Shown here: positions 39,895 through 54,008 of the stretch, one piece after another
How positions within the stretch are numbered: position 1 is the first letter of the stretch
How the letters are laid out: every line of letters starts with the position of its first letter
Assembly: GCA_903839725.1 (NCBI GenBank)
Contig: CAIMDG010000002.1
Coordinates: 135,739-199,738 of the forward strand
Length of the DNA stretch: 64,000 nucleotides
Source of the DNA: an uncultured bacterium
GTDB lineage: Bacteria; Patescibacteriota; Minisyncoccia; Phycocordibacterales; PALSA-1337
Direction of reading: 5' to 3'
Translations under genes and position numbers: made by a program
The notes under the pieces: model-generated
What the model saw: only the letters and a program-made list of their open reading frames with translations
Databases searched by the model: none
What the model was told of the DNA's origin: nothing

Positions 39895-39944
39895 GTGAGT
39901 TAAATAATTTGTAAAGAATCAATATAAGTATACCTCTATATGGT

Positions 39945-41261
39945 CTAGTGGAACAAAGTTGCCTTGAGTGTATTGGGGATCGCCGCGTCTCTCAACATTA
40001 TTGCGGAAAGATTCGCGGTTGATGTTCCATAATTAATTCCATACACCTGAGGATATGCTGTTGATGATGGATATGAACCAGTTGCCAAGTAATTAGCAGA
40101 GAGGAACTTTGTTTGACCTGGGGCAATGTAGAAATATGATGAGCTGTCACCTGCCGAATCAGTACTCGTCATTCCTGTAGGCATTATGGTCAAAGTTGTT
40201 GTACCAATTGTCATAGGAAAAGCGGTTGGACCATCCTTAGATATGTACATTGGATAATTTCCCGCAGTTATCGAGGCATTGAATACAAATTTTTGAGCCG
40301 CAACAGCGTCAGTCGATGAAATACTTAATGAACCATATTTTACTCCGAGATTGGAAATGATTGGTGAAGAAATGCATGCGAAATTCACCGTCTCACTTTG
40401 TCCATCAACTGTTGTGATAGGTATATCAGTATTACTACAACTGTTGTACCAATACAAACGTGTTCCTTTTGGAGCAGTTATATTAGCAACACATGATCCA
40501 ACACCTGTACAAGTAAATGTAGCAACTGTTGTTGTAGAGGTTGTAGAAGTTGGTGATGCAACTTTTGTATAACACTTTTGTTCTGTAACAGCTCCATTAA
40601 ATATACACTTCACTTGTTCCGAAGTTACCGCGGGCGCCGATGATTTAATAACAAAATAGTTATCACTGATGTCATTTAATGCAATAAATGGATTTCTATT
40701 GATTACACTCTGACATTCGGCCGCACTCACTGTTGGACACAATGAAACCATGACCTTATATTTACCAGGAGCAACAAAAGACGGAATAGACCAAGAATAA
40801 TATGTATTCAATGTTATCAATGGATAATTATTCTCACCACCATTAATTGCATTTGTGACAATTTTTCCATTTGAATCAATCAAAGTAAGAGCAAATTTTG
40901 TAATGCCCTCTTCAATAACTGGAACATAGTTCCACTTAATCTTCACCGTACCACCAACATAATATGTCTCTCCACTATCTCCATTTGGTGAAACAACTGT
41001 AATAGGTACGACTGTACATGTATATCCACTTGGACATCCCTTTGGTTGAGGTGGGATAGGTGTACATACAAGATTTGTAGGACATACAACTCTTGATGAA
41101 GTAGAAACAGTTGAATTATTTAATGCAGTAGACGCTGCAGCAAGATTCGCATTACCAGAAATACCAGCAACTACTGACGAAGAGTATGATGTTGGCGAAG
41201 AATATATTGCAAAAGCAACGAGTGTTATAGCGAGAGTGTTTACAAAATGATTTTTTAACAT
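39945..41261 (-). CDS. Secreted surface protein (438 aa), paralog of the upstream gene
   Basis: N-terminus MLKNHFVNTLAITLVAFAIYSSPTSYSSSVVAGISGNANLAAAS and repeat VVSPNGDSGETYYVGGTVKIKWNY. Cys-rich near the N-terminus (CPTNLVCTPIPPQPKGCPSGYTCT). Confidence 0.65.
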   Translation of the reverse strand: MLKNHFVNTLAITLVAFAIYSSPTSYSSSVVAGISGNANLAAASTALNNSTVSTSSRVVCPTNLVCTPIPPQPKGCPSGYTCTVVPITVVSPNGDSGETYYVGGTVKIKWNYVPVIEEGITKFALTLIDSNGKIVTNAINGGENNYPLITLNTYYSWSIPSFVAPGKYKVMVSLCPTVSAAECQSVINRNPFIALNDISDNYFVIKSSAPAVTSEQVKCIFNGAVTEQKCYTKVASPTSTTSTTTVATFTCTGVGSCVANITAPKGTRLYWYNSCSNTDIPITTVDGQSETVNFACISSPIISNLGVKYGSLSISSTDAVAAQKFVFNASITAGNYPMYISKDGPTAFPMTIGTTTLTIMPTGMTSTDSAGDSSSYFYIAPGQTKFLSANYLATGSYPSSTAYPQVYGINYGTSTANLSAIMLRDAAIPNTLKATLFH

Positions 41262-41406
41262 ATATGTTACGCGATTAATGAACTACTGATAATACTAATA
41301 AAGAGAAAAGACACACCTCGATTGAGGTAGTGCCTTGGGTAGTGAGATAAGTATAGCAATAAAATATCTTCATGCAAGAAAGGTTATCCACATAAAGACG
41401 GGTAAT

Positions 41407-41441
41407 ATAAAATCGGCACTCCACGATGTAGAGCGCCGATT
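41407..41441 (-). terminator. Intrinsic terminator after the channel-like gene
   Basis: aatcggcactc cacgatgta gagcgccgatt (11 bp stem, 1 mismatch), followed on the minus strand by tttt. Confidence 0.55.
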
Positions 41442-41471
41442 ACCATAACAAGACCAAAATCAACTTACTGA

Positions 41472-42551
41472 CTAGGTCCCGGAGACTGGGTTAAGAGCCC
41501 GCCAATCAACCACCTCATCTATCCGATGTTCCGCTATATAAAATAACGACATGCCCCCTCTGAGCATGGCATCAGCAGATGGATTAAGAATTGGCGCCGA
41601 TTCACACGACTGATCAGTTGTGTATCCAATAGCAATTGCTCGGTATTCCCCGTTGAAAATAGCGAGCACCTGACCAAACGGAATCGGCTGAACAAAGTCT
41701 GGAATGTTGATCCGGAAGTTCGTGCCCGGATGATTGATGCTCACAAGTTCCCGAATGAGCTGCGTCGAACCAGGATTGAGCGTTGCCTGAGCGATCAATG
41801 AAGACCTCAATGAAGTGACGCATTCAATGTGCGGATTGACCGCCTTGATGAAGCGCGCATATTCATGCTTCTCCAGATACACCACTATGTGGGCATCTTT
41901 GCGAGCCTTACTGTTAGCGACGATCGTTACCGCCACTGTTCGCTCATCAAGTTCGTGACCGCTAATAACAATGGTTTTCGCAGTAGACACGCAGGCCCGT
42001 TCGAGCACTTCATCCTCCGACGTATCTCCTTGAACAAACTCGACCATCCCCGGAAAAGGATTTTCCGTCACATGCCGAGTAACTAACACTATTGAATGAT
42101 TCCCGATATGGTCAGACACTAATTGTCTAACGAGGTCACCAGTTTCCCGTGGCCGATATCCGAGTAAAACAATATGATCTTTCATCTTTAATCTCACCAG
42201 ACCTTTCTTCTTTGTTTGGAATTTCTCGTGGACAACAGCGAGTGACTTGCACATGGTGGAGATAAAAAATAATCCCCCACCAAAGAAGCTCACCAATGCT
42301 GTTAAACGTCCACCAATTGTTGTGGGAGAATACCCACTATAACCACCTCGCATAACATCGTTCACGAAATACCACCAGTAAACTGATGGCGAAACAATGC
42401 TTGCGTGCGGCTCAAAATGTTCAACTGCAACCCACCCTCCAAAAAAGGAAGTGAGAAACAGAATCACGAGGTATCTCCATTTCAGGTTGATGACGAGGCT
42501 GTACACCACGTCAATAAATTTTCCTTGCACATTTTTCCTTTCATTTTTCAA
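41472..42551 (-). CDS. Ion-channel-like membrane protein with a cytoplasmic RCK/TrkA-like domain (non-canonical filter-like segment TTIGG)
   Basis: Two N-terminal TM helices flank GYSGYSPTTIGGRLTALVSFFGG. They are followed by a Rossmann-like segment IVLLGYRPRETGDLVRQL and a second RCK-like half. GC-richer than its neighbours. Confidence 0.5.
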   Translation of the reverse strand: MKNERKNVQGKFIDVVYSLVINLKWRYLVILFLTSFFGGWVAVEHFEPHASIVSPSVYWWYFVNDVMRGGYSGYSPTTIGGRLTALVSFFGGGLFFISTMCKSLAVVHEKFQTKKKGLVRLKMKDHIVLLGYRPRETGDLVRQLVSDHIGNHSIVLVTRHVTENPFPGMVEFVQGDTSEDEVLERACVSTAKTIVISGHELDERTVAVTIVANSKARKDAHIVVYLEKHEYARFIKAVNPHIECVTSLRSSLIAQATLNPGSTQLIRELVSINHPGTNFRINIPDFVQPIPFGQVLAIFNGEYRAIAIGYTTDQSCESAPILNPSADAMLRGGMSLFYIAEHRIDEVVDWRALNPVSGT

Positions 42552-42614
42552 GGTCCTACTACCCTTGCATTAAAAAACACAATAACATAGATATGTATTA
42601 TTGTAAAGATATAG

Positions 42615-42642
42615 AAAAGGGCGGTCGCAAGCGACCGCCCTG
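42615..42642. terminator. GC-rich perfect palindrome terminator at the left edge of the GC-rich block
   Basis: gggcggtcgc aa gcgaccgccc (10 bp perfect palindrome), followed on the minus strand by ttttc. Confidence 0.65.
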
Positions 42643-42658
42643 TGATAGAGACGTGTGA

Positions 42659-44272
42659 TCAATTCGACTTCCAAACCACACTCAGGTTGGAACGGACCGT
42701 TCCTTCCCAGCTCGTAACGTCGTGCGGGTTGACCCAGACAACGTTTTTGTAGAGCGCATCCGTCAGCGTCAGGTCCGGGGTGCTCCCCGCAATGAAACCC
42801 TTCTGGCCAGCGTGTTTTTTGTCCTTGTAGGTCACCACGGTGGTGAGCCAGAAAAAACGCCGTTTACCATCAATGTCCCTGACCCAGGGCCGGTTCTCGA
42901 CAGGCCTCGACTGTTCCCAGTCATACTGCTTGCGAGACTCCATGACCTTCGGAGGGATGGCACTCACACCGGTGAGTGCCTCATTGATTTTGTAATGCTG
43001 GTAGACACGCATCGGACCGATGCCGTCAGCCGGGACGAACATGCTTGTATTCAAACCCTGCTTGGTGTCGTGATACGGCTCCAAGGCGAAGTAGTGATAC
43101 AGCTTGTTCTCCGGCGAACCTTCCCGTTCAAAGCGAAAAAACGCCGTGAAGGGTTGATCGTTTTCATCACTCGGCAAATCCGGAATACGAATGTCTCCCT
43201 TGTGATACAAGGGCATCGGCGAGAAAAATCCCGCTTGGAACCGTAGCGACGCCGCAGCATACCGCGACACTTCATACGGCAGATTGTTCTGCCGCAGAAG
43301 GAACGGATGCTTGTGAATGTCAGCTGGAGAAATCCATTCCCCGTCGCCGACAAACCAGCTCTTGATCATTGCCCAAAGGGTGTCGTCTCCCTGACGAATA
43401 ACTTGGACACCACCGAATTCGGGCCAGACAAAGATGAGTCCCTTCCAGTGGATGAGCGAAACTACCTCGATCCAGTTGCCATTGTCGTCCTGAATGAACT
43501 TGATGTCGCGTGGACTGCATGAGAAGAACCTGAGAAGTCCCAACGAACGGATCGTCGAAACATCAGTATTTTTTCCCATAAGCAGATCTTCGCCGACCCT
43601 GAATGAGACCGGCACACGGTTTTGCCCAGAAAAATTCGGGCTCGCCGCAAGACCAGAAACATCCATGATTTCTTTTATGTGTCCGAAGAAGGACGGAATC
43701 GAATACGCTGGCTCGATAGCCATAGACCAACGGAACTCTTCTTTCCCGTTGTTGACGATCCGGACAAAGTCCGGCGTCGACACGCGTTCGACTTCCTTCA
43801 TTGCCTCACCGCCGAGGACCCGAATCGAATTGAGCGGTTGAATCCGCTCATGATCCGTAGTTGGCAATGTTGTGATGAAGGTTGGCTTCATCGAATGGTA
43901 ACGCAGGTAGAGCGTGATATACCTGAGTGGCGGCAACTCCATTTCGAGATGCGACACAACTCCGATAGTGGCAATCGCGATGACCGCGAAGACCAGCTTC
44001 CATTTACGACGAACCCACGCTGCGCAGAATGCCCATCCAATGATCAGCACCGAAATACATTCAGGACTGTGGACGCGGGCAATGACGATGTAGGGTTGCC
44101 AGTAAGCCCGAAAAACAAACGTCAACCATATGACCGTAGCCATGAGGATGAACGCTGCCTTGCGATGCCGACCTGACCACCCCTGAAACCGTGTTATTGA
44201 ATTACGCACCAGCCAATACAGCCAGCCGTGTTCCTTTTCGATTGGAACAGAATCTTTATTTTCTGGATCCAT
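42659..44272 (-). CDS. Hypothetical membrane-anchored protein (537 aa; 3 N-terminal TM helices plus a large soluble domain), GC-rich
   Basis: TM segments AAFILMATVIWLTFVF, VLIIGWAFCAAWV and LVFAVIAIATIGVV. No recognised family. Confidence 0.5.
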   Translation of the reverse strand: MDPENKDSVPIEKEHGWLYWLVRNSITRFQGWSGRHRKAAFILMATVIWLTFVFRAYWQPYIVIARVHSPECISVLIIGWAFCAAWVRRKWKLVFAVIAIATIGVVSHLEMELPPLRYITLYLRYHSMKPTFITTLPTTDHERIQPLNSIRVLGGEAMKEVERVSTPDFVRIVNNGKEEFRWSMAIEPAYSIPSFFGHIKEIMDVSGLAASPNFSGQNRVPVSFRVGEDLLMGKNTDVSTIRSLGLLRFFSCSPRDIKFIQDDNGNWIEVVSLIHWKGLIFVWPEFGGVQVIRQGDDTLWAMIKSWFVGDGEWISPADIHKHPFLLRQNNLPYEVSRYAAASLRFQAGFFSPMPLYHKGDIRIPDLPSDENDQPFTAFFRFEREGSPENKLYHYFALEPYHDTKQGLNTSMFVPADGIGPMRVYQHYKINEALTGVSAIPPKVMESRKQYDWEQSRPVENRPWVRDIDGKRRFFWLTTVVTYKDKKHAGQKGFIAGSTPDLTLTDALYKNVVWVNPHDVTSWEGTVRSNLSVVWKSN

Positions 44273-44292
44273 AATTCCTTTCAGTTGGCGCG

Positions 44293-44889
44293 TTAGCGCT
44301 TTTGAGTGAATTCCTTGATTCGATCTTCCGGGGATTTCCGCGGTTGCACCGGAATAACCGGAGCAGGTGCAGGAGCAGGAGTTGGTGGCGGTGTGCTTTT
44401 AGCATCCGACGATCCGTTACCATTATTCTGTGCCGCCGCTGTTCGTTTCTCGATCTCTTCATCAATTCTGTCACCAATTTTGTAAGCAATTTTACGCTTA
44501 TCCCATAATGGCCAGACGAAGTAACCGATAGCGAAGCCGAAGACCATCGCCGGAATTTCCACGAACCAAAGCACGAGCTCGACGAAAGCGTTCGAATGAA
44601 ATCCTGTGAAGTAAAACATTCCCAAGGTTTGCACTGTCGAAACTATTGTCGCAATCAGGAACTTGCGTCCCGTTGATTGTCCGTAGATGAGGCCGAATGC
44701 TTTTTCAGCTGGTTTCTTGTGCGTCAGGTCGTAGATTCCTTTCGCGATGTTCTGCAGATACTGACGATCCAAGATGTAAGTCAGGATCCCGAGTCCGAAG
44801 AAGAACAGCACCCAAGAGGTGCTATACAAGCGGGTATGTTCGATAATACTATTCATATAGGTGTGTGGTTTTGGGTTGTCGAGGTTCAA
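44293..44889 (-). CDS. Hypothetical 4-TM membrane protein with a Pro-rich C-terminus, GC-rich
   Basis: 198 aa with the tail TPPPTPAPAPAPVIPVQPRKSPEDRIKEF. Separated by 20 nt from the downstream gene, so probably co-transcribed with it. Confidence 0.5.
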   Translation of the reverse strand: MNLDNPKPHTYMNSIIEHTRLYSTSWVLFFFGLGILTYILDRQYLQNIAKGIYDLTHKKPAEKAFGLIYGQSTGRKFLIATIVSTVQTLGMFYFTGFHSNAFVELVLWFVEIPAMVFGFAIGYFVWPLWDKRKIAYKIGDRIDEEIEKRTAAAQNNGNGSSDAKSTPPPTPAPAPAPVIPVQPRKSPEDRIKEFTQKR

Positions 44890-44963
44890 CTAAATTGTTT
44901 GTTTCATGTTGAAACTCTGGCATACATATTACACATATTTGCAATATTGTCAATATTGATGCG

Positions 44964-46088
44964 TTGTGCTATTCTAGAGCCATGAAAACAACTTCCGCAC
45001 TTATTATTGGAGAAGGACACTTGGCGAATCGCGTTACAAAATTACTCGAAACAAGAGGCTGTGCCACCACACATCTTCCTGAATATAACAACGAGGCAAT
45101 TCATACATTTACAAGAATCTTCTTGCTCGATGACAAAGATGAATACAATTTGCAGACACTCATAACCCTTATATCGTTGAAAAAAGATATTCGTATCACC
45201 ACTTCACTATTCAATGAGAATATTGCTCCTCATATACGAGCAGTACATCCACATATCGAAATATTAAATCCAGCCAAAATTGCCGCACCTTCATTTGTTG
45301 ATGCTTTATATACCTCACTTGAACATAAGCTCACCTACCAAGCTACTCCACAAGAAAATATTTCACACAACACTTCTGACAATCTCATTACTATATTGAT
45401 TGGATCATTTATTGCAGTTATTGTCGCAGCGACAATATATTTTCACATAGCAGATACTCTTCCCTGGGTTGATGCTCTCTATTTCGTTATAGCAACAGTC
45501 ACTACAGTCGGCTATGGTGATATCAATCTTCTGAATTCAAGTACGTTCAGTAAAATTATCGATATTCTTCTTCTCTTGAGTTCAATGTTCTTCGTATGGA
45601 CTATATTCTCTTTGACGATAAATCATCTCATAAAAAGTCGTGAGCGTTTGGCTCTTGGTAGAAAAACATATCCATACACAAATCACGTTATTCTGTGTGG
45701 GCTCGGCAGACTCGGATACTTCATTGCACTTGAACTTATTGCGCGAAATGAAAAGATTATTGTTATAGAAAAGAATGAGAGTTCTGCGTATGCTGAAGAT
45801 ATTCGTAATCGTGGAATCCCCGTATATGTAGGTGACGCACGAATGCCTCAAGTGTTGAAAGATGTTGCAGTGAGTCGATCGAAGGCATTTATGTCTGTGA
45901 TCAACAATGACTATACCAATCTTGAAATCGGTCTCAATGCCCGCTCATTCAAACCCGGCCTTCGTCTTATTCTCAGAATATTTAATAAAGAAACAGTACA
46001 AAAAATAAAAGAAAGTTTGGATATACATCTCGCACTGAGTATGTCAGCTGTTGCTGATGAAGTATTTGCAGATACATTGAATAAATAG
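44964..46088 (+). CDS. Potassium channel (TVGYGD selectivity filter) with N- and C-terminal TrkA-N/RCK Rossmann domains
   Basis: ATVTTVGYGDINLL filter between two TM helices. HVILCGLGRLGYFIALEL and N-terminal LIIGEGHLANRV GxGxxG motifs. Low GC, like the host. Confidence 0.75.
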   Translation: MCYSRAMKTTSALIIGEGHLANRVTKLLETRGCATTHLPEYNNEAIHTFTRIFLLDDKDEYNLQTLITLISLKKDIRITTSLFNENIAPHIRAVHPHIEILNPAKIAAPSFVDALYTSLEHKLTYQATPQENISHNTSDNLITILIGSFIAVIVAATIYFHIADTLPWVDALYFVIATVTTVGYGDINLLNSSTFSKIIDILLLLSSMFFVWTIFSLTINHLIKSRERLALGRKTYPYTNHVILCGLGRLGYFIALELIARNEKIIVIEKNESSAYAEDIRNRGIPVYVGDARMPQVLKDVAVSRSKAFMSVINNDYTNLEIGLNARSFKPGLRLILRIFNKETVQKIKESLDIHLALSMSAVADEVFADTLNK

Positions 46089-46116
46089 CAGTTTGAAGAC
46101 TCATTCAAGGAAATAG

Positions 46117-46148
46117 AAAAGCCCCGTCGGAAAACCGGCGGGGCTTGA
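46117..46148. terminator. Bidirectional terminator between the K+ channel gene (+) and the AAA ATPase gene (-)
   Basis: aagccccgtcgg aaaa ccggcggggctt (stem with 1 mismatch). A second small palindrome acagacga tg tcgtctgt lies at 46155-46172. Confidence 0.6.
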
Positions 46149-46176
46149 ATGTTACAGACGATGTCGTCTGTCTCGA

Positions 46177-48135
46177 TCACGAATGTGCTTTTTTGTAGCG
46201 CTTTTCAGCCTCTACATTGACGCTGATGCGACCGACGGTCGCAGCTACATCACGCTCAAACTGAACGTTGGCGATTTGTGCCAAGGTGTCCAAATACCGC
46301 AGCGTTTCCTCGAAACGAATCGAGGCGAAGTCCAACCCTTTCATGTTGGCACGGAGGGCTTCCTTCAACATTTCGACCTTGCGGTCGTAAGGCTGCGTGT
46401 AGAACAACTTGGTGTCATCCAACCATTCGCTCGGCAAGTCGAAGTCGAAGATTCGAGCATCGATCGCAGATTGAATATTGCGAACATCGCGAGATGAGAA
46501 TCGCGGATACGATTCGCGCACATACGTGTAGAGGTGCCCGAAGAAGTCGTGTTCCGTTTTCTTCCAACCCTTGGTAGCCCGCTCAACCGCTTCGGCAATC
46601 TTCGGATCCTTGGCGACGTAAATACCACCATCTGTCTTTTGAAGCTCCGCCAAATTGTGCAGAGCCTTTTGTGCAGAGAGGTATTCATAACCCTTAGGAT
46701 CCGCCATGCCGACGAATTTCGAATCGAGCTTCGCGAGCTTGCGATGCCACATGAAGTCTTGATCGATGAAGTCCTCACGACTTTCCGCACCGTCAATCGG
46801 AAATCGAGACTGGACGCGCGAAAGCACGGCAGGATCGATGACCTCGGGCAGATTTGTGAAGAGCTCAATCACCCAATTACCGCGCTGAATGGCAGAAGCA
46901 CCTTCAGTGTTACGAAGGAATACAGAAATGACTTCCTTCACGCCCGCAGATACACCTTCGCGTGAGCGGTCCATGAAGTTATTTTCTGCATCATCAACCG
47001 GCGCATAGACGATTTTGTCGTCATCAGTCAACCGGCGCATCCAGTCTTCCATCCGTTCAGCAGAACCACCCTGGAAGGTGGAAACAACTGTTGCCGGCAT
47101 AGGCCAGAATAGGAACGGGATACTCAATCTTTCACACAACTCCTGGATCAAGGTGGCCGTCGCAGCGATCTGCAAACTTTTGCCAGTGCCAGGAAAGCCG
47201 AACCCCATCCGCGTGCCCGGGAATGAACCGAGCTCAAGAAACGGATTACGCTTGTGAATGACGTCATAGCAGCAGATCATCATCGCGAGGCGTTGAGCAT
47301 AATGCTTCGCACGCCGATTGCCGACGATGTCGCCGAAACCAACCTTGCGGAATTCGACGCTGACCGCTGCACCTTTTGACGTATTCTCGAAACCCTTGAC
47401 GATGAAGTCGGAATTTTCGAGCTTGTAGCTGACCTCGGTGAAGGGTTCGCTGAATGTCAGCGAACTTTTCTTCCCATGAATTTCATTGGTAACAGATTCG
47501 AAATACAGCAAAGCAAGCTTCACTAATTCCAAACCGTTGTTCACAATGCCGGCATCTGCTGAGCAGTAGCGAGCAAAGTAATACACCACGCTGACAAGAC
47601 CGTTTTGAGGAGTCTTATATGCAAGTTCCGGAACACCCGGAAAATCGAGTTTCATAGTCGCCACTTTATCAGCCTGATATCGTGACAATTCGTAAACGAT
47701 GTAAGACGCCGCACCGAACATTGCGATTGCAGAAGCTGTTGCTCCCTTGGCGTTGAACTCGGCCAACTGGCCATTGCCCAAGCTTTTGGAAGCATTCTGC
47801 TGTCGCATAATATCCAGGCCGGCACGTTTTTCATATTGCTGGGCCAAATAAAGTCCCATACATATGCCGTTACGAACCGTAGAGATGACAGTGTTCACCT
47901 CGGGGGTGAGAATCGCACTACTGCCACTGATTTCGTTGGCCAAGGCAAAGATACTGACCGTATCCGTGACCTGTTCTGAAGGAGGGATCGGTTTGATCGA
48001 CAGAGTTTCCCCTGAACGAATAACCGTTTTTGTAGCCCTCCACTGTGTCTGCATCATTGTTGCATCTGCCCACTTCATGAACGCCTCCATATCGGCGGAT
48101 GTAATGGGGAGATATGAGTCTGCTGCATTTGTCAT
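46177..48135 (-). CDS. Classical AAA-family ATPase (652 aa) with an uncharacterised roughly 280 aa N-terminal domain and a C-terminal extension
   Basis: GDIVGNRRAKHYAQRL...GFGFPGTGKSLQIAATATLIQEL (Walker A) and TVVSTFQGGSAERMEDWMRRL (SxxGESEK-like). The Walker B region IVYAPVDDAEN is atypical. GC-rich. Confidence 0.7.
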   Translation of the reverse strand: MTNAADSYLPITSADMEAFMKWADATMMQTQWRATKTVIRSGETLSIKPIPPSEQVTDTVSIFALANEISGSSAILTPEVNTVISTVRNGICMGLYLAQQYEKRAGLDIMRQQNASKSLGNGQLAEFNAKGATASAIAMFGAASYIVYELSRYQADKVATMKLDFPGVPELAYKTPQNGLVSVVYYFARYCSADAGIVNNGLELVKLALLYFESVTNEIHGKKSSLTFSEPFTEVSYKLENSDFIVKGFENTSKGAAVSVEFRKVGFGDIVGNRRAKHYAQRLAMMICCYDVIHKRNPFLELGSFPGTRMGFGFPGTGKSLQIAATATLIQELCERLSIPFLFWPMPATVVSTFQGGSAERMEDWMRRLTDDDKIVYAPVDDAENNFMDRSREGVSAGVKEVISVFLRNTEGASAIQRGNWVIELFTNLPEVIDPAVLSRVQSRFPIDGAESREDFIDQDFMWHRKLAKLDSKFVGMADPKGYEYLSAQKALHNLAELQKTDGGIYVAKDPKIAEAVERATKGWKKTEHDFFGHLYTYVRESYPRFSSRDVRNIQSAIDARIFDFDLPSEWLDDTKLFYTQPYDRKVEMLKEALRANMKGLDFASIRFEETLRYLDTLAQIANVQFERDVAATVGRISVNVEAEKRYKKAHS

Positions 48136-48159
48136 AAGTTAATCTTTCTTTTGGTTGAG

Positions 48160-48193
48160 AAAAGGGGCGGGAAGAAAACTTCCCGCCCCCAGT
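48160..48193 (-). terminator. Intrinsic terminator after the coiled-coil protein gene
   Basis: ggggcgggaag aaaa cttcccgcccc (11 bp perfect stem), followed on the minus strand by tttt. A second hairpin aacggca aaacaa tgccgtt at 48198-48217 overlaps the stop codon. Confidence 0.7.
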
Positions 48194-48215
48194 TTGCAAC
48201 GGCAAAACAATGCCG

Positions 48216-49625
48216 TTACGGTTTTTCGTTACCACCGCCGGGGGGCGGATTGCCGTCACCTGATGGCGGAGGAGGAGCTGAGAACAGGGAGCTTCCCGTG
48301 TTAACGCCTTCGTAACCTTCCGACATCATGGTTAGCATCGTGTCAGCGCGATCGCGTGTGCGCTTGAAGTGCTTCCTGAGCGCCTCGCAGATGACTTCGT
48401 TTTCACGAAGCAGACCCGGTTGTTCTTCCAGATCCTCCATGAGTGCATTGTCAGCCGCGACGATCGCCGCCGCACTGCGTTCCGACATGTTCCGATCGGT
48501 TGTGATACCAATCTTCTTGATCAAACCATCGAACTTTTGGTCCGCAATGGTCTGCATGTTCACCAGTGACGCCGGATACATCTTGGCGCGCTCTTCGGTG
48601 TCAGACTTGAGACGCGCAATGCGCGCCTTGTGCCGACCTTGAAGTTTGATCGCGGTGATGTGCTCCAGCTCGAGCAACTTGAGGTTCCGTTCCTTCGACT
48701 GGAAGTAGGTCAGGGCGACCTCGCGATCACTGCGGATTTGCTCCACTTGTGCCACGAGGTTCGAAATGACTTTTTCTTGAGCCGAGTAGTCCGGAGTGCC
48801 GTTGGCAAAGGTGCTGAGCGTCGCCTGCTCTGTTTCCAGGGCAGCCTCGTTCTTTTCGAGGTCAGCAGTAAGTTTCTCCATCTGCTTTGCGGCAAGTTCC
48901 TTTTCACGCAACGCCACTGTCCGGCGCTCGTCGAGAATACCGATCTGCACTTGCAGTTCTTCGACACGAACCGTCATGATTTGCACGGTCTTGTTGCTCA
49001 AGCTGACGAAGGCATCGACGGACTTCTCCATCGTTGCATCCATCAAACGTTGACGAACACGAGAGGCCATGTCAACTTCGGCCGCCGCAATCCCCTGCTG
49101 GTCGAGTTCGAGCTGCCGTTCGAGTTCGGCGGCAGCGCGATCACGAATCCCAAAGGGATTGAACCAGCTGGCTTTTTTGGATTCCAAAGCCTGTTTGGTC
49201 TTTGCGTGTTTGTTCTTGGCGTTCTGGACCAAGGCCAACTCTTCAGCGCTGGGTTCGACCAGGGCCTTGAATTGTTGGTCCATGCCTTCGGTGACCTGTT
49301 GCAAGGCTTCCATTGAGCCCGCGAAATCACGTTCATCGCGTTCGGCCTGAACCTTTACGGATTCGAATGTCGATCCCGTAATACGAGCCTGCACCGTTGC
49401 ACGATCTTGGGCACCATCCTTGATGCCTTCTTCGACGATTTCGTCGAGGCGAGCCGCCGTGCGACGACGAGTGCTTGCGACGTTTGCCCGGCTATCCGCC
49501 ATGACTTGGTTGCCCAAGTTGAGGATACCGGCCAATCCGCCACCGTCACCGTCGCCAGGGCCGCTACCATTTGTTTGGGTTGATCCAGGAGGTTTACTCC
49601 CAGGAGTTCTACGAGTTGGTGTCAT
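48216..49625 (-). CDS. Coiled-coil protein (469 aa) with Pro/Gly-rich termini; tentatively TelA-like (toxic anion resistance family)
   Basis: Long heptad-rich central region (…LQVQIGILDERRTVALREKELAAKQMEKLTADLEKNEAALETEQ…). The termini are PGSKPPGSTQTNGSGPGDGDGGG and PPPPSGDGNPPPGGGNEKP. Weak resemblance to TelA segments (KKASWFNPFG, MSERSAAAIVAADNALMEDLEE). Confidence 0.45.
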   Translation of the reverse strand: MTPTRRTPGSKPPGSTQTNGSGPGDGDGGGLAGILNLGNQVMADSRANVASTRRRTAARLDEIVEEGIKDGAQDRATVQARITGSTFESVKVQAERDERDFAGSMEALQQVTEGMDQQFKALVEPSAEELALVQNAKNKHAKTKQALESKKASWFNPFGIRDRAAAELERQLELDQQGIAAAEVDMASRVRQRLMDATMEKSVDAFVSLSNKTVQIMTVRVEELQVQIGILDERRTVALREKELAAKQMEKLTADLEKNEAALETEQATLSTFANGTPDYSAQEKVISNLVAQVEQIRSDREVALTYFQSKERNLKLLELEHITAIKLQGRHKARIARLKSDTEERAKMYPASLVNMQTIADQKFDGLIKKIGITTDRNMSERSAAAIVAADNALMEDLEEQPGLLRENEVICEALRKHFKRTRDRADTMLTMMSEGYEGVNTGSSLFSAPPPPSGDGNPPPGGGNEKP

Positions 49626-49796
49626 AATTCAATCCGTGGTTCTATGTTTGGGTTGAGAGGTTTGTGTTGCACATTCGCTTTTCAAAGGACTAAACGAACG
49701 CACTACTGGAAAAGACCATAGCAAACTTATACGCTCTTGTCAAGAGAGTCATTTACTACAGCTTTACGTCTCCCGTCGACCTCAAAAGAGGGCCTT

Positions 49797-49830
49797 GACA
49801 AAGCCGTATTTCTGTATAGTATGTTGATTG
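49797..49830 (+). promoter_or_regulatory. Near-consensus sigma70-like promoter for the 49865..50398 gene, plus a divergent -35 palindrome
   Basis: ttgacaaagccgtatttctgtatagtatg has a TTGACA -35 and a TATAGT/TATGTT -10. Upstream, the palindrome ctcttgtcaagag (49734-49746) places a TTGACA on the minus strand 17 nt from TATGGT, a candidate promoter for the coiled-coil gene. Confidence 0.5.
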
Positions 49831-49864
49831 AGTCTCAAACCTCGAACATTACCAAAACCATATT

Positions 49865-50398
49865 ATGAAAGCACTGCTCCTCACTCGGCGCACTCGTATT
49901 CCTGCATCGATTCGTCAATGCCTGAATGCCGGTGCAAGCACATTTGTCGTCACGGAAGTTACTGGCGGTAACCATTACCAAATCGCAGAATCCATTCGAA
50001 GACACATCCGGTATTCTGCTCCGACTATTATCGCCATCGATGGCGAATATGGAGCCACCGATGCGGCAGCGTGGACTCAATTGTCAAAGCTTGATCCCGA
50101 ATCACTTCGCCTGCGCATCTTGTCAGATCAAGGTCTGCCCAAAAGTCTCGAACTTCTCAAGATCGCCCACGCCGTCAAGGGAAACTTAACCGGCGTCGTG
50201 ATCTTCATTGAAAAGCCGAGCGACACACTTCGCACCGAGCTCCGTCGCATCGGCGCACTCTGGGTCTGGCCGACGTTGAACAAGCCGACCGGTCTCGAAT
50301 CTTCATTCTACAAGATCATTACCGGTATCCACCGCTTCACCGCCGGCTTCAAAGATCTCATTGATGTCGCTGTCGGCGAAATCACCGGCAAGAAATAG
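49865..50398 (+). CDS. Hypothetical protein (177 aa), GC-rich
   Basis: ORF with good coding composition. It has its own promoter-like site, and a terminator follows at 50419-50450. Confidence 0.45.
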   Translation: MKALLLTRRTRIPASIRQCLNAGASTFVVTEVTGGNHYQIAESIRRHIRYSAPTIIAIDGEYGATDAAAWTQLSKLDPESLRLRILSDQGLPKSLELLKIAHAVKGNLTGVVIFIEKPSDTLRTELRRIGALWVWPTLNKPTGLESSFYKIITGIHRFTAGFKDLIDVAVGEITGKK

Positions 50399-50418
50399 CG
50401 TCACTCATTTCCCATCAT

Positions 50419-50450
50419 CCCTCTGGAATTTTCCGGAGGGGTTTTTATTT
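50419..50450 (+). terminator. Intrinsic terminator after the 49865..50398 gene
   Basis: ccctctgg aatttt ccggaggg gtttttattt. Confidence 0.65.
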
Positions 50451-50483
50451 CACCACTATAAGAACAACAAAATATATACAAAC

Positions 50484-50518
50484 AAAAAACACCAACCCTT
50501 TATGAGCTGGTGTTTTTT
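50484..50518 (-). terminator. Intrinsic terminator after fusA
   Basis: aaaaaacacca accctttatgagc tggtgtttttt, a bidirectional A/T-flanked hairpin. Confidence 0.65.
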
Positions 50519-50532
50519 GAATAATGTAAATA

Positions 50533-52677
50533 CTATTTTCTCTTTTCAACGATAGCCTTCTCAACATTTCCTGGAACCACTTCATAGTGATCGAATTCCA
50601 TCATGGCACTTCCCTGACCTGATGTCATAGAGCGAAGTTGTGTGGTATATCCGAACATTTCTGACAATGGAACCTTGGCATGAATAGCAATCGCTTGACC
50701 ACGAGGTTCTGAACCTTCAACCTGTCCACGCTTTGAAGCAATAGAACCGTTGACGTCACCCATATACTTTTCTGGTGCGATAACTTCGAGCTTCATGATA
50801 GGTTCGAGGATAACTGGCTTCGCGCGCTTTGCAGCATCCTGGAATGCTTGTGATGCAGCGATCTTGTAGGCAATTTCTGATGAGTCAACATCGTGATACG
50901 AACCGAAAGTAAGTTCACAAGAAACATTCACCATTTTGAAACCAGCAACAATACCGCGATCGAGAGCTTCGCGAACACCCTTTTCAACTGCTGGAATGAA
51001 TTCATTTGGAATAACACCTCCCTTGATAGAGTTGATGAATTCAAAGTCATCATAACGCTTAACGTTCTTTGGAATCTTTTCACCCTCAACGAGAGGTTCC
51101 ATAGGTTTGAGGGTGAGACGGACGTGACCGTACTGACCTTTACCTCCTGTCTGCTTGATATATTTGTGTTCAGCTTCAGCAGTATTCATGATTGTCTCAC
51201 GATATGCTACCTGAGGTTCACCAACATTTGCTTCAACACCGAATTCACGCTTCATACGATCAACCATGATTTCGAGGTGGAGTTCTCCCATTCCCGAAAT
51301 AATAGTCTCGCCTGTTTCAGGGTTTGAAGTGATACGGAATGTTGGATCTTCGTTACCAAGTTTCTTCAAAGCCATACCCATTTTTTCTTGGTCAGCCTTT
51401 GTCTTTGGTTCAATGCGGAGAGAGACCACAGGTTCCATGAATTTGATAACTTCGAGAATGATAGGATTGGCTTCATCACAGAATGTGTGAGAAGTAAGAG
51501 CATCTTTCAAACCAACGGCTGCAGCAATTTCCCCCGCGAACACTTTCTTCACTTCTTCACGCTTGTCAGCCTGGAGACGAACGATACGGCCGAGACGTTC
51601 CTTCTTGCCTGTCGTAGCATTGTAAATATATGTTCCTGCTTCGATCGATCCTGAATACACACGGAAGAATGTGAGTGCTCCGACGAATGGATCGTTTTGA
51701 AGTTTGAATGCGAGAGCTGAGAAAGGTTCAGTATCAGATGCATGACGTTCGATCTCGCCTCCAGTATTTGGATCAATACCCTTGATAGCTGGCATATCGA
51801 GTGGAGATGGGAGGTAATCAACAACTGCGTCGAGAACCAACTGAACTCCAACGTTCTTCAAAGCTGAACCGGTAAAGACTGGGAAAATCTTGTTTGCAAT
51901 AACTGCTTTACGAGCAACTACTTTGAAATCTGCGATAGAAATTTCTTTACCATCAAGGAAGTTCTGCATAGCAACATCATCTGTTTCAACAACCTTTTCA
52001 ATCATTTCTGCACGATATTTCTTTGCATCTTCGAGCATATCTGCAGGAATCTCCTTTTCGATAATGTTAATACCCTTCTCACCGTCGAAGAAGTACGCCT
52101 TCATTTTCAAAAGATCAACAACACCTTCATGATTAGACTCATTTCCGATAGGAAGTTGGAAACGAACTGCATTCTTATTCAAGCGCTCAAGAATAGACTT
52201 GTATGAACGTTCGAATGATGCACCCATGCGGTCCATCTTGTTGATGAAACACAAACGAGGAACCTTGGCTTCATCGGCATAACGCCAGTTAGTCTCAGAC
52301 TGAGGTTCAACGCCGGCCACGCCGTCGAAGACCACAACCGCACCGTCGAGCACGCGGAGAGAACGCTTCACTTCTACAGTAAAGTCGATGTGTCCTGGTG
52401 TATCGATGATGTTGAAACGAACTTTCTTTGAAACATCTTCCTTGGGCATATACGAAGGATTCCAAAAACAAGTGATCGCAGCCGCAGTAATAGTAATACC
52501 GCGTTCACGTTCCTGTTCCATCCAGTCAGTAGTTGTTTCACCTTCGTGAACTTCACCAATCTTGTGGATCATACCTGTGTAATACAGGATACGTTCTGAA
52601 GTTGTAGTTTTGCCGGCATCAATGTGAGCAATGATACCGAAGTTGCGTACCTTATCGAGTGAGTAATCGCGATTCAT
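50533..52677 (-). CDS. fusA: Elongation factor G
   Basis: AHIDAGKTTTSERILYYTG, DTPGHIDF and NKMDR motifs. 714 aa. Confidence 0.95.
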   Translation of the reverse strand: MNRDYSLDKVRNFGIIAHIDAGKTTTSERILYYTGMIHKIGEVHEGETTTDWMEQERERGITITAAAITCFWNPSYMPKEDVSKKVRFNIIDTPGHIDFTVEVKRSLRVLDGAVVVFDGVAGVEPQSETNWRYADEAKVPRLCFINKMDRMGASFERSYKSILERLNKNAVRFQLPIGNESNHEGVVDLLKMKAYFFDGEKGINIIEKEIPADMLEDAKKYRAEMIEKVVETDDVAMQNFLDGKEISIADFKVVARKAVIANKIFPVFTGSALKNVGVQLVLDAVVDYLPSPLDMPAIKGIDPNTGGEIERHASDTEPFSALAFKLQNDPFVGALTFFRVYSGSIEAGTYIYNATTGKKERLGRIVRLQADKREEVKKVFAGEIAAAVGLKDALTSHTFCDEANPIILEVIKFMEPVVSLRIEPKTKADQEKMGMALKKLGNEDPTFRITSNPETGETIISGMGELHLEIMVDRMKREFGVEANVGEPQVAYRETIMNTAEAEHKYIKQTGGKGQYGHVRLTLKPMEPLVEGEKIPKNVKRYDDFEFINSIKGGVIPNEFIPAVEKGVREALDRGIVAGFKMVNVSCELTFGSYHDVDSSEIAYKIAASQAFQDAAKRAKPVILEPIMKLEVIAPEKYMGDVNGSIASKRGQVEGSEPRGQAIAIHAKVPLSEMFGYTTQLRSMTSGQGSAMMEFDHYEVVPGNVEKAIVEKRK

Positions 52678-52697
52678 ATAATCTTAAAAATTAAATA

Positions 52698-53094
52698 TTA
52701 AATCTCAAATTTTAGTAATCTTACTATTTTTCTTCATTGTAATTATACTCGCTCCCAATATATTTGATATCTCAACAGTCTCCTTAAGAATCGTTTCTGC
52801 TATGTCTTTTTGAAGCTTTCCTGTATCACGAGCCAATCCTATCCATAATTTAGACTCATTTGCAGACTTTAAACTATACGTGTAGAAATTGATGTAATCT
52901 TTTCTAGAACTTGCACCTTTAGCTTCAACAACATTCGCAACAACCGATGTTCCACTTCTTATCAACTGTCTTGCAATCACCTGACCTGAAATATCTTTAG
53001 AGAACTTATCGACGCATCTCACAATCTCAATGGCATACTTGTATAATCTTGCATCAATTTCCTTCTTCGTCATTTTTGAGATTTGAGATTTAAT
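52698..53094 (-). mobile_element. Putative mobile cassette: four-helix-bundle gene bounded by 14 bp perfect terminal inverted repeats
   Basis: attaaatctcaaat at 52698-52711 and its exact reverse complement atttgagatttaat at 53081-53094. The left repeat includes the gene's stop codon and the right repeat lies 8 nt upstream of its ATG. Extra partial tandem copies of tttgagattt occur at 53075-53091. The cassette interrupts the conserved rpsG-fusA junction. Confidence 0.55.
52705..53073 (-). CDS. Four-helix-bundle protein (TIGR02436-like; 23S rRNA intervening-sequence protein family)
   Basis: MTKKEIDARLYKYAIEIVRCVDKFSKDISGQVIARQLIRSGTSVVANVVEAKGASSRKDYINFYTYSLKSANESKLWI matches the four-helix-bundle family pattern (SxxANIAEG-like SGTSVVANVVEA, FxxFLxIAxGSxxE-like). 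Confidence 0.75.
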   Translation of the reverse strand: MTKKEIDARLYKYAIEIVRCVDKFSKDISGQVIARQLIRSGTSVVANVVEAKGASSRKDYINFYTYSLKSANESKLWIGLARDTGKLQKDIAETILKETVEISNILGASIITMKKNSKITKI

Positions 53095-53109
53095 CTTTCA
53101 GATTGAAAC

Positions 53110-53580
53110 TTACCAAGCAAAGTGAGCAAAAGCCTTGTTTGCTTCCGCCATCTTGTGAACGTTTTCACGCTTCTTAACTGCTTCTCCTTCATTCTTTGAT
53201 GCTGCGATGATTTCGTCAGCGAGTTTGAGGTGTATAGGCTTTCCCTTCTTTCCACGAGCCGCTTCAACGATCCACTTCATAGAAAGTGAATTCTTGCGTT
53301 CTGGGCGAACTTCACGAGGAACTTGGTAGTTTGCTCCACCGACACGGCGTGAACGAACTTCCATAGCTGGTGCAGTATTCTTGAGAGCCGCCTCGAAAAC
53401 TTCGAGAGGATTCTCATTTTTTGTCTGTTCTTTAATCGCAATCATACAATCAGCAACAATCTGGCGAGCAATGTTCTTCTTGCCTGACTCCATAATATAG
53501 TTAGTAAGCTTGGCGAGTTTCAATGACTGATATGTCACATCTGGCTTGAGCTCACGCTTGAGGTTTAATTTTCTTCGCAT
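53110..53580 (-). CDS. rpsG: 30S ribosomal protein S7
   Basis: 156 aa with the pattern RRVGGANYQVPREVRPERKNSLSMKWIVEAARGKKGKPIHLKLADEIIAASKNEG. Confidence 0.93.
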   Translation of the reverse strand: MRRKLNLKRELKPDVTYQSLKLAKLTNYIMESGKKNIARQIVADCMIAIKEQTKNENPLEVFEAALKNTAPAMEVRSRRVGGANYQVPREVRPERKNSLSMKWIVEAARGKKGKPIHLKLADEIIAASKNEGEAVKKRENVHKMAEANKAFAHFAW

Positions 53581-53591
53581 AGTAGTAGGGG

Positions 53592-54008
53592 TTATTTAGC
53601 TGCTTTTGGCTTCTTGTTACCATATTGACTGCGACCTTTTCTGCGCTTATCTACGCCAGCTGCATCGAGCACACCGCGAACAACTGAGTAACGGAGACCA
53701 ACGTCTTTGACGCGACCGCCACGAAGGAGGACCACTGAGTGTTCCTGGAGGTTGTGACCTTCACCTGGAATATATGCAGTAACTTCAAGACCATTTGTAA
53801 GACGAACACGAGCAATCTTGCGGATAGCTGAGTTAGGCTTCTTTGGAGTCTTTGTTGTAACTTTCACGCACACGCCGCGCTTGAATGGAGCCGGGAAGAA
53901 AACTGGTCGGTTCTTGACCGAGTTGAAGGTGCGGGTGAGCGCAATAGACTTCGACTTGCGGGTGAAGCGAGCACGATTCTTCTTGATTAACTGGTTGATT
54001 GTAGGCAT
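53592..54008 (-). CDS. rpsL: 30S ribosomal protein S12
   Basis: [10 protein letters not shown]... [18 protein letters not shown] ... [15 protein letters not shown] is the canonical S12. Confidence 0.95.

Follow-up and report, generated by a model that had tools for sequence, protein, structure and literature searches.

A divergent classical-clade AAA+ ATPase and a long helical protein at the core of a conserved bacterial gene cluster with a candidate role at the cell envelope

An uncharacterised AAA+ ATPase and a long coiled-coil protein (hereafter cc), encoded side by side in an uncultured member of the Patescibacteria, make up the cytoplasmic core of a gene module that is conserved, self-contained and associated with the cell envelope. 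In the window, by which we mean the whole 64,000-nucleotide stretch of DNA analysed, both genes lie on the minus strand: cc (48216..49625) is an open reading frame of 469 aa and the AAA gene (46177..48135) one of 652 aa, separated by a spacer of exactly 80 nt (48136..48215), as an earlier sequence-only reading of this DNA had described. Its view of the two genes as a linked, uncharacterised module was borne out, as their order and strand are kept across phyla. Our preferred reading, which we put at a probability of roughly 45%, is that the ATPase acts on membrane-located assemblies of cc, remodelling them or taking them apart, as part of a conserved envelope module, with gene linkage and analogy pointing to cc as the substrate. 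Membrane or envelope maintenance is our leading guess for the physiological output. A literature search returned nothing on the cluster.

We examined the neighbourhood of the pair in an HMM survey of 88 loci, treating a locus as testable where it offered enough flanking DNA (upstream DNA in the case of cc). A same-strand cc homologue lay upstream of the ATPase gene in 53 of the 54 testable loci; the pairing is thus not due to chance, and a functional link between the two proteins in a genuine module is supported. The pair was found together, with conserved order, across many bacterial phyla, including Patescibacteria, Verrucomicrobiota, Bdellovibrionota, Bacteroidota and Deinococcota, and more distant versions occur in Alpha- and Gammaproteobacteria. 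The latter include versions in Sinorhizobium meliloti and Vibrio parahaemolyticus, both amenable to genetics, which makes the cluster testable. Module proteins share about 40–50% identity across very distant phyla, and the cc family alone comprises 329 representative clusters.

Three architectures were seen, and cc and AAA alone are common to all of them. The full cluster, present in most phyla, consists of cc, g370, AAA, DUF6638, tm190 (three transmembrane (TM) helices, ~190 aa) and tm530 (3-TM, ~530 aa), with identical gene order and strand in Pelagicoccus (L001) and a representative of the Bdellovibrionota (L002). Among testable loci, tm530 was detected in 48/51 and DUF6638 in 47/51, and at all 16 loci where the HMM missed tm190 a multi-TM open reading frame of 170–200 aa occupied the same position. 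A reduced form, cc-AAA-tm190-tm530, is found in L003 to L006, L010, L040, L041 and the window, where an RCK channel-like gene follows, and the proteobacterial form is cc-g370-AAA-DUF6638 (hhalign probabilities 99.2–100%). The 'two-gene module' of the sequence-only reading was accordingly drawn too small, cc and AAA being the invariant core of a cluster of four to six genes. Pfam annotation of the six families is limited to 'AAA' and a DUF, and five of the six have no characterised or structurally solved relative. Clusters so conserved usually serve basic cell biology. Here, six co-inherited families are deeply conserved and a reduced form is kept in minimal Patescibacteria genomes; retention in genomes this small would point to a basic cell-envelope function.

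Judged by its motifs and profile matches, the ATPase is a divergent, single-ring member of the classical AAA+ clade and belongs to a distinct, strongly conserved family (>120 full-length homologues, 42–77% identity). The classical AAA core recognised at first reading was confirmed by a match of residues 312–447 to Pfam AAA (PF00004; E=9e-7; bit score 29.8, cut-off 21.2). Motif invariance was judged on an alignment of 29 homologues. The Walker A motif, G313-FPGTGK-S320 (47176..47199, minus strand), is present as first described, with G313, G316, T317, G318 and K319 invariant. The SxxGGSAER stretch, S352-TFQGGSAE-R361 (47053..47082, minus strand), had been taken for the second region of homology (SRH); it is instead pore-loop-1, aligning with 'DKYIGESAR' of Rpt4 and containing an aromatic-x-Gly motif (F354-Q-G356, opposite K-Y-I-G of Rpt4), with S352, T353, Q355, G356, G357 and S358 invariant. 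The true SRH is TNLPEVIDPAVLSRVQSRF (T427, N428, R440, R444), in which the sensor-1 residues T427-N428 and R440 are invariant and R444 is kept in at least 90% of the homologues. Walker A, the pore loop, the sensor-1 TN and the SRH arginines are also retained in the 27%-identical proteobacterial branch, the pore loop of the distant Sinorhizobium/Vibrio branch reading S(S/E)YQGKS.

The Walker B motif, V376-YAPVDDAE-N385 (46981..47010, minus strand), is indeed atypical. It aligns to MDEVD of Rpt4, and Asp-Asp replaces Asp-Glu: the Mg-binding Asp is present, and the catalytic Glu is changed to Asp in every member of the family, the proteobacterial branch included. D381 and D382 are invariant, as is E384, two residues past the Asp-Asp pair. 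Within the AAA+ field this invariant Asp-Asp is an uncommon form of the catalytic site, and its presence throughout the family makes it possible that the protein hydrolyses ATP slowly or acts as a switch. Profile searches of the PDB returned classical AAA proteins only (Rpt4, Cdc48, Vps4, FtsH, Pch2, Pex6, spastin and Msp1), all at E >= 0.0017; with E-values of 0.0017 for Rpt4, 0.009 for Cdc48, 0.015–0.1 for Vps4/SKD1 and 0.05 for FtsH, the ATPase appears equidistant from all classical subfamilies. Its N-terminal domain (residues about 1–262; 47350..48135, minus strand), a small beta-sheet plus helical bundle private to the family, was modelled with confidence and matched no solved fold, so that the novelty suggested for it was upheld and the domain appears to be a new fold. 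Searches of this domain found no MIT domain, and the ATPase has no helix–turn–helix (HTH), second ring, protease domain or TM anchor. About 200 aa follow the SRH, a longer region than the '150 aa C-terminal extension' first noted, and it includes a FSSRDVRNI motif similar to FSGADL of other AAA lids, which we take to mark a canonical lid.

The AF2 model of cc is an all-helical elongated bundle (pLDDT 71.7 overall and about 85 for the core, residues 90–370), in keeping with the coiled-coil protein first proposed, and the Gly/Pro-rich ends visible in the sequence are disordered. Hydropathy gave no hydrophobic segment or head and no signal peptide, and the only predicted membrane-binding segment is a short aromatic loop, S153-WFNPFG. 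A C-terminal motif is conserved, which in the window protein reads Y438-x-G440...SLF and in most relatives YGIDPxxSSFFxY (family form (Y/W)G(I/V)DPxxSSFFxY), followed by a low-complexity tail; proteobacterial cc proteins do not carry it. We found no sequence relative of cc in Pfam or the PDB, and fold searches returned generic long-helix matches only (TM-score <= 0.35, none at E <= 1e-3). A ClyA-family alpha-pore-forming toxin was considered and rejected, given a weak fold likeness (E 4e-3 to 5e-2, TM <= 0.35) and the lack of a hydrophobic segment.

The 'weak TelA-like segments' of the sequence-only reading were not recovered: the TelA profile (PF05816) matched neither the window protein nor 9–10 relatives at E <= 1, nor any of 109 family members at E <= 0.01. 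A TelA-type toxic-anion or tellurite stress module, for which that first impression spoke together with TerB and TerC genes about 9 kb from the cluster in a single locus (L002), is effectively refuted at the sequence level, and no Ter genes are among the recurrent neighbours of >80 loci. Homology to ESCRT-III or PspA found no more favour. Reviews describe a Vps4-type partner of ESCRT-III-like proteins as missing in bacteria (PMC7619361), and a very divergent but true ESCRT-III/PspA-superfamily filament with its Vps4-type ATPase, acting in bacterial membrane scission or repair by descent, would fill that vacant niche; the ATPase does match Vps4/SKD1 among other classical AAA proteins (E = 0.015), and the C-terminal peptide of cc recalls a MIM. 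However, we consider such descent very unlikely, as none of the 109 cc members matched Snf7 or PspA_IM30, no PspA, Vipp1 or ESCRT-III chain of the PDB came up with the cc profile (E <= 10), an hhalign comparison with E. coli PspA gave a probability of 9%, and ESCRT-III fold matches ranked beneath many unrelated coiled coils. Moreover, ESCRT-III proteins are half as large as cc, the N-domain of the ATPase is not MIT-like, and Vps4 scores no better against the ATPase than Rpt4, Cdc48 or FtsH.

Two integral membrane proteins encoded in the same cluster render a membrane connection plausible, as had been suggested at first reading. The product of tm190 (44293..44889, minus strand; 198 aa; 30% identity to L001, E=7e-26) has, by hydropathy, three hydrophobic helices and a charged, Pro-rich, predicted cytoplasmic tail that closes in a conserved basic motif. 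That of tm530 (42659..44272, minus strand; 537 aa; highly conserved, 47% identical to its Pelagicoccus counterpart, E=7e-166) has three N-terminal TM helices and a C-terminal domain of ~420 aa, predicted to be non-cytoplasmic from hydropathy and the positive-inside rule, and has no relative in Pfam or the PDB. Downstream lies rck (41472..42551, minus strand; 359 aa), whose product matches TrkA_N, Slo-like_RCK and IRK in Pfam and combines a 2-TM channel-like N-terminus with an RCK/TrkA_N region. In L005, L006 and L011 the gene after tm530 is again an rck homologue, and in L010 one follows on the opposite strand. Five loci have RCK/K+ channel-like genes attached to the cluster, and rck is a recurrent accessory gene of the reduced (CPR-type) clusters.

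Under our preferred reading, the ATPase would form active hexamers of the classical AAA+ type and translocate or disassemble proteins, recognising a client by its private N-domain and pulling it past the Phe-Gln-Gly pore loop. An abundant elongated helical bundle, cc would be the client or adaptor; its conserved aromatic peptide at the C-terminus may serve for docking, and cc may assemble with tm190 and tm530 on the inner face of the membrane. The energy of ATP hydrolysis would serve to remodel, dismantle or recycle the cc assembly. The proteobacterial version lacks adjoining tm190 and tm530 as well as the cc C-terminal motif, so neither the membrane link nor the docking motif is universal. 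Other possible real clients are g370, DUF6638, the tm190 tail or a product encoded elsewhere.

The same components could serve a transport or extraction machine, in which the ATPase drives export, insertion or extraction of proteins across or out of the membrane via tm530/tm190, and cc is its chaperone, its adaptor or a secreted substrate resembling a translocator; Msp1, Bcs1 and FtsH-type extractors and, in type VII secretion, EccA would be comparable. Such a role would suit the two membrane proteins, both conserved and one of them with a large domain predicted to be external, the polypeptide threading implied by the pore loop, and the disordered cc termini and terminal peptide motif, of a kind that serves as targeting signals. 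We nevertheless regard it as unlikely, since the structural matches of cc are generic and weak, cc lacks both a hydrophobic head and a signal peptide, tm190 and tm530 do not adjoin the proteobacterial form, and no known secretion-system components were found among the neighbours.

Signals around the genes bear on the expected stoichiometry of our preferred reading. A candidate promoter (TTGACA, 17 nt, TG-n-TATGGT; 49715..49743, minus strand), found by consensus scan with 10/12 matches and an extended -10 TG, precedes the cc start codon by about 90 nt. The spacer between cc and AAA contains a GC-rich hairpin with a U-tract (GGGGGCGGGAAG-UUUU-CUUCCCGCCCC-UUUUCUC; 48157..48190, minus strand), the spacer folding at -42.4 kcal/mol (z = -6.4). 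Terminator-like hairpins directly follow cc in all eight reduced-type loci (among them L003, L004, L005, L006, L010 and L041) and in 25 of 65 distinct loci overall. As a candidate leaky terminator or attenuator, the spacer hairpin would keep expression of AAA below that of cc; such hairpins fit with cc being more plentiful than the ATPase. Past the AAA stop codon, a further terminator-like hairpin with a U-tract (46111..46146, minus strand; -33.7 kcal/mol, z = -4.2) faces a convergent K+ channel gene.

The logic of the module resembles that of Vps4 with ESCRT-III, NSF with SNAREs and PspF with PspA and PspBC, although the proteins are unrelated. As in Vps4 (CdvC) with ESCRT-III (CdvB, Snf7), the gene for a single-ring classical AAA+ protein with an aromatic pore loop adjoins that of a long-helical-hairpin partner, which has a short conserved C-terminal peptide and is probably in excess of the ATPase, and there is a membrane setting. 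The module differs in its non-MIT N-domain, which has no fold match in the PDB, in the Asp-Asp Walker B, in a cc protein about twice as large and devoid of Snf7/PspA profile signal, and in g370, DUF6638, tm190 and tm530, which have no ESCRT counterpart. If the ATPase does recycle its helical partner at the membrane, the module would be a bacterial ATP-driven scaffold-remodelling system and a possible answer to the open question of the missing partner. The broader proposal of an ancient, pan-bacterial and hitherto unrecognised membrane AAA+ machine of six families, which would use ATP to build and take apart a helical scaffold and would have evolved independently as the functional counterpart of the ESCRT-III/Vps4 cycle, is rather unlikely.

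The PspF-PspA-PspB-PspC system likewise combines in one operon an AAA+ protein, a peripheral coiled-coil protein and small integral membrane proteins, a parallel by which cc could regulate the ATPase as well as partner it. However, PspF is a sigma54-activator-clade AAA+ protein with a DNA-binding domain, whereas the module ATPase, a classical-clade protein, has a pore loop and lacks an HTH; cc is not PspA_IM30, tm190 and tm530 are not PspB/PspC, and no cluster protein matched the Pfam families of the Psp system (PspA_IM30, sigma54-type activator, PspB/PspC). Archaeal 'Halo_adaptin' loci encode a MIT-less Vps4-like ATPase and, upstream, a weakly PspA-like gene (Makarova et al., 2024; PMC10936438). 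They share with our module a MIT-less classical AAA protein with another N-terminal substrate-recognition domain, encoded directly downstream of a helical-protein gene, but their ATPase groups with Vps4 and has a Cdc48/VAT-type double-psi barrel where the module N-domain is novel, and the accessory genes are not the same. In NSF with SNAP/SNARE bundles, Cdc48, Msp1 and FtsH, an N-domain similarly engages helical-bundle or membrane-anchored clients, which are unfolded through the central pore; only the AAA core is related to these, distantly (E >= 0.0017), and the partners are unrelated.

Base composition and flanking genes were informative regarding a role in defence, also mooted at first reading. 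In the window lineage the cluster is a compositional island (GC3 0.48–0.63 against 0.25–0.42 in the flanks), which implies horizontal transfer, and a multi-gene cluster of unassigned function with an NTPase and membrane proteins might be an anti-phage or other conflict system with an AAA+ sensor or effector. We consider this highly improbable, given that there was no PADLOC match (PADLOC-DB v2) and no homologue in 50,697 phage records or among 2.9 million viral contigs, that plasmid matches were all on large, non-mobilisable replicons, and that nuclease, protease or toxin domains were not detected. Flanking genes are mixed housekeeping genes with no defence islands, and the high conservation (43–48% identity across phyla) is unlike that of fast-evolving defence genes. 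The gene at 49865..50398, singled out at first reading for a check of neighbourhood conservation, is kept only in the closest relative (62% identity) and lies outside the conserved module. It has an unusual GC3 in common with the module.

The genes of the 469 aa helical protein (cc; 48216..49625, minus strand) and the 652 aa AAA+ ATPase (AAA; 46177..48135, minus strand) are separated by exactly 80 nt, and neither product has a match in NCBIfam or PADLOC. Homologues of both lie in a six-gene, same-strand array that is identical in Pelagicoccus (Verrucomicrobiota) and Bdellovibrionota genomes, in the order cc (442 aa), g370 (372-389 aa), AAA, DUF6638 (about 420 aa) and two membrane protein genes, tm190 (~190 aa) and tm530 (~530 aa). 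Four of these six have homologues in the window: cc (30% identity, E = 2e-39), AAA (47% identity), tm190 (44293..44889, minus strand; E = 7e-26) and tm530 (42659..44272, minus strand; 47% identity, E = 7e-166), while g370 and DUF6638 were found nowhere within the 64 kb. We then searched metagenomes by alignment, which yielded 80 further loci, and scanned all of their ORFs with family HMMs. Where the sequence reached 3 kb or more upstream, cc preceded AAA in the same orientation in 53 of 54 loci; where it reached 4.5 kb or more downstream, tm530 was present in 48/51 loci and DUF6638 in 47/51. The tm190 HMM was weak and missed 16 loci; in each of these the gap holds an ORF of 170-200 aa that encodes several TM segments and a conserved basic tail at the C-terminus.

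The window shares a reduced form, cc-AAA-tm190-tm530, with Saccharibacteria, Paceibacterota and related loci (L003-L006, L010, L040, L041). A third form, present in Sinorhizobium, Rhizobium and Vibrio, consists of cc (360 aa)-g370-AAA-DUF6638 and lacks the genes of the two membrane proteins; homology of this proteobacterial form was confirmed by hhalign probabilities of 99.2-100%. Comparison of the three architectures therefore leaves cc and AAA as the sole part common to all. The sequence-only reading had proposed a two-gene module: its pairing of cc and AAA is real, being kept in order and strand across the survey of both families, and the pair is the core of a larger cluster. This cluster is conserved and self-contained, and in about 80 loci it is bordered by unrelated genes of housekeeping function. 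Among the loci with sufficient upstream sequence, only L017 (1..8053) has no cc homologue before g370-AAA, even at a relaxed HMM threshold. In Sinorhizobium meliloti (L089, 12828..15344), where an IS element and an endonuclease gene lie between AAA and DUF6638, the gene after DUF6638 encodes a protein of the DUF2333 family whose N-terminus has two hydrophobic helices, and it sits where tm190 and tm530 stand elsewhere. We rejected it as a tm530 homologue (hhalign 1.3%), and the literature on DUF2333 held nothing relevant.

The sole Pfam match of the ATPase is the AAA domain, which scores above the gathering threshold (residues 312-447, E = 9e-7). A search of the whole PDB with the ATPase family profile retrieved only classical-clade AAA proteins, all weakly (best E = 0.0017), including Rpt4, Cdc48/p97/VAT, Vps4/SKD1, FtsH, Pch2, Pex6, PAN, spastin and Msp1. 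The protein belongs to the classical AAA clade, outside every described subfamily. In an alignment of 29 full-length homologues, the Walker A motif (G313-x-x-G-T-G-K), the segment S352-T-F/Y-Q-G-G-S, a Walker B variant (D381-D382-x-E384), T427-N428 and R440 are invariant, and R444 is kept in at least 90%. The catalytic Glu of Walker B is replaced by Asp in every family member, including the 27%-identical proteobacterial branch. The motif 'SxxGGSAER', previously taken for the second region of homology (SRH), proved to be something else: in the profile alignment 'STFQGGSAER' falls on the pore-loop-1 segment 'DKYIGESAR' of Rpt4 and is therefore a substrate-contacting pore loop, and the true SRH, with the arginine fingers, is TNLPEVIDPAVLSRVQSRF. 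The ATPase carries every motif that a ring translocase requires except the canonical Walker B Glu, and its N-domain, private to the family, is predicted by modelling to be well folded.

The partner protein cc has no Pfam match, and its family, as delimited by exhaustive profile search, comprises 329 representative clusters, nearly all of 430-480 aa. The structural model is all-helical, with a moderately confident core (residues 90-370, about 85) containing a very long hairpin (H200-270 and H278-372) between disordered ends. Conserved positions include an aromatic loop at W154, R193-L194, an FQSKE motif, L-x-S-D-T-E-E-R and a C-terminal motif, (Y/W)G(I/V)DPxxSSFFxY, which is followed by a low-complexity tail. 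The sequence-only reading had noted a resemblance to TelA and an analogy with ESCRT-III/PspA filaments. None of 109 family members matched the Pfam TelA profile, so that a TelA-type module is hardly credible and we rejected TelA identity of cc. Nor did any of the 109 match PspA_IM30 or Snf7; hhalign against E. coli PspA gave a probability of 9%, and the 109-sequence profile retrieved only coiled-coil noise from the PDB. Fold searches were uninformative on this question, since a long antiparallel bundle of helices, whatever its family, matches chains by the hundred. Foldseek with the cc model returned nothing at E <= 1e-3, its weak matches being mostly ClyA-family toxins and F-BAR domains, and cc could not be placed among the ClyA toxins. 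PspA/ESCRT-III homology of cc thus finds no sequence or profile support, and true ESCRT-III homology of the system is very improbable.

Based on hydropathy and the positive-inside rule, tm530 is predicted to have three N-terminal TM helices and a conserved domain of ~420 aa outside the cytoplasm, and tm190 to have three TM helices and a cytoplasmic tail. Profiles of g370, DUF6638 and tm530 found no relative among PDB sequences; cc and the four other cluster proteins are outside any characterised family. The earlier description of an uncharacterised, possibly membrane-related module holds, now on much stronger evidence. We infer that the cluster belongs to an established type of machine, in which an AAA+ remodeller acts on a helical client at a membrane. 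An ATPase hexamer would engage cc via the N-domain, probably contacting the cc C-terminal motif, and would then remodel or disassemble cc assemblies at the membrane; we give this reading a probability of about 0.45. The C-terminal motif is kept in most reduced clusters, which are without g370 and DUF6638, and its receptor should therefore be AAA, tm190 or tm530. tm190 itself ends in a conserved basic motif (44293..44340, minus strand, in the window; also L037, L048, L052 and others). Marine loci have it as ...KSARDR(L/F)KDKG(M/L)IK, whereas the window has ...SPEDRIKEFTQKR and Pelagicoccus ...REMIRRYTKR. It is a further candidate, after the cc motif, for a peptide that docks a cytoplasmic component. 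An ATPase with ring-translocase motifs encoded beside membrane proteins might instead belong to a transport or extraction machine, which we consider unlikely.

The proposed remodelling cycle follows the same logic as Vps4 with ESCRT-III, NSF with SNAREs and PspF/PspA/PspBC, and there is an archaeal precedent, a Vps4-like ATPase lacking the MIT domain whose gene has a weakly PspA-like one upstream of it (PMC10936438). Bacteria, according to recent reviews, apparently have no Vps4-like ATPase (PMC7619361). The cluster could be assigned to none of the Vps4/ESCRT-III, Psp and TelA systems, the ClyA toxins or the defence systems of PADLOC, and full-text searches of the literature, on DUF6638 among other subjects, gave no account of it. 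There is an appreciable chance that it represents a genuinely new pan-bacterial machine. A defence role, which had also been suggested, is very improbable, as PADLOC, phage records and 2.9 million viral contigs yielded no instance and neighbourhood analysis was negative.

Channel-like genes accompany the module. An RCK/TrkA_N gene often follows the reduced form; in the window (rck; 41472..42551, minus strand) it encodes a 2-TM channel-like N-terminus and an RCK domain, with 'GGYSGYS', by eye, at the position of the K+ selectivity filter and not TVGYG. A gene of this kind also follows tm530 in four other loci (L005, L006, L010 and L011), one of them a six-gene-type cluster, and its recurrence hints that the module is connected with ion or osmotic homeostasis. 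A second gene, for a 374 aa K+ channel (44964..46088, plus strand; Ion_trans_2 and TrkA_N) with the canonical TVGYGD filter, lies between AAA and tm190 on the opposite strand and so divides what was ancestrally one operon into two transcription units; this insertion is present only in the window and its closest relative, L005.

A promoter-like site (TTGACA, 17 nt, TGnTATGGT) stands about 90 nt upstream of cc. The 80-nt spacer (fold -42.4 kcal/mol, z = -6.4) contains, directly after the cc stop codon, a strong GC-rich hairpin followed by a U-tract, UUUUCUC (48157..48190, minus strand). Such a hairpin and U-tract follow cc in all eight reduced-type loci and also in many six-gene clusters whose spacers measure 60 nt or more, which makes 25 of 65 distinct loci overall. 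Across the eight reduced-type clusters (window, L003, L004, L005, L006, L010, L040 and L041) its position is conserved and its sequence partly so (GGGGCGGGGGAG...CUCCCGCCCC-UUUUUCUU), L040 and L041 having different stems. It may act as a leaky terminator through which cc would come to outnumber the ATPase. After the AAA stop codon stands another terminator-like hairpin, which faces the convergent K+ channel gene; Rfam found nothing in the region.

The module genes and a divergent 177 aa gene form a compositional island (41472..50398), with GC3 of 0.62 in cc, 0.58 in AAA, 0.54 in tm190, 0.63 in tm530, 0.48 in rck and 0.58 in the 177 aa gene, against 0.25-0.42 in the neighbours (fusA 0.39, inserted K+ channel 0.31). 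The same contrast is seen in L005 and not in L006, L001 or L007, which suggests horizontal acquisition from a higher-GC donor; the island persists in two lineages although their ATPases are only 77% identical. The 177 aa gene (49865..50398), to which the sequence-only reading had drawn attention, is conserved in the closest relative only and was rejected as a module member. In the lineage of the window the whole cluster sits inside the str/S10 ribosomal-protein region (39945..54008; L005). The order in L005 is rpsL-rpsG-fusA, a 223 aa homologue of the 177 aa gene, cc, AAA, Kch, tm190, tm530, rck, two further ORFs and tuf-rpsJ-rplC, and that of the window is the same, reversed. Between rpsG and fusA, the window has a 122 aa ORF (52705..53073, minus strand) that matches PF05635 (E = 4e-20), the four-helix-bundle family of the '23S rRNA-intervening sequence protein', and has no counterpart between S7 and EF-G in L005. 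Downstream of the module (37579..41261, minus strand) lie two ORFs of 771 aa (Kre9/KNH Ig-like domains) and 438 aa, Ser/Thr-rich, AT-rich and alike in their N-termini; they lie outside the module and probably encode surface proteins that belong to the host genome.
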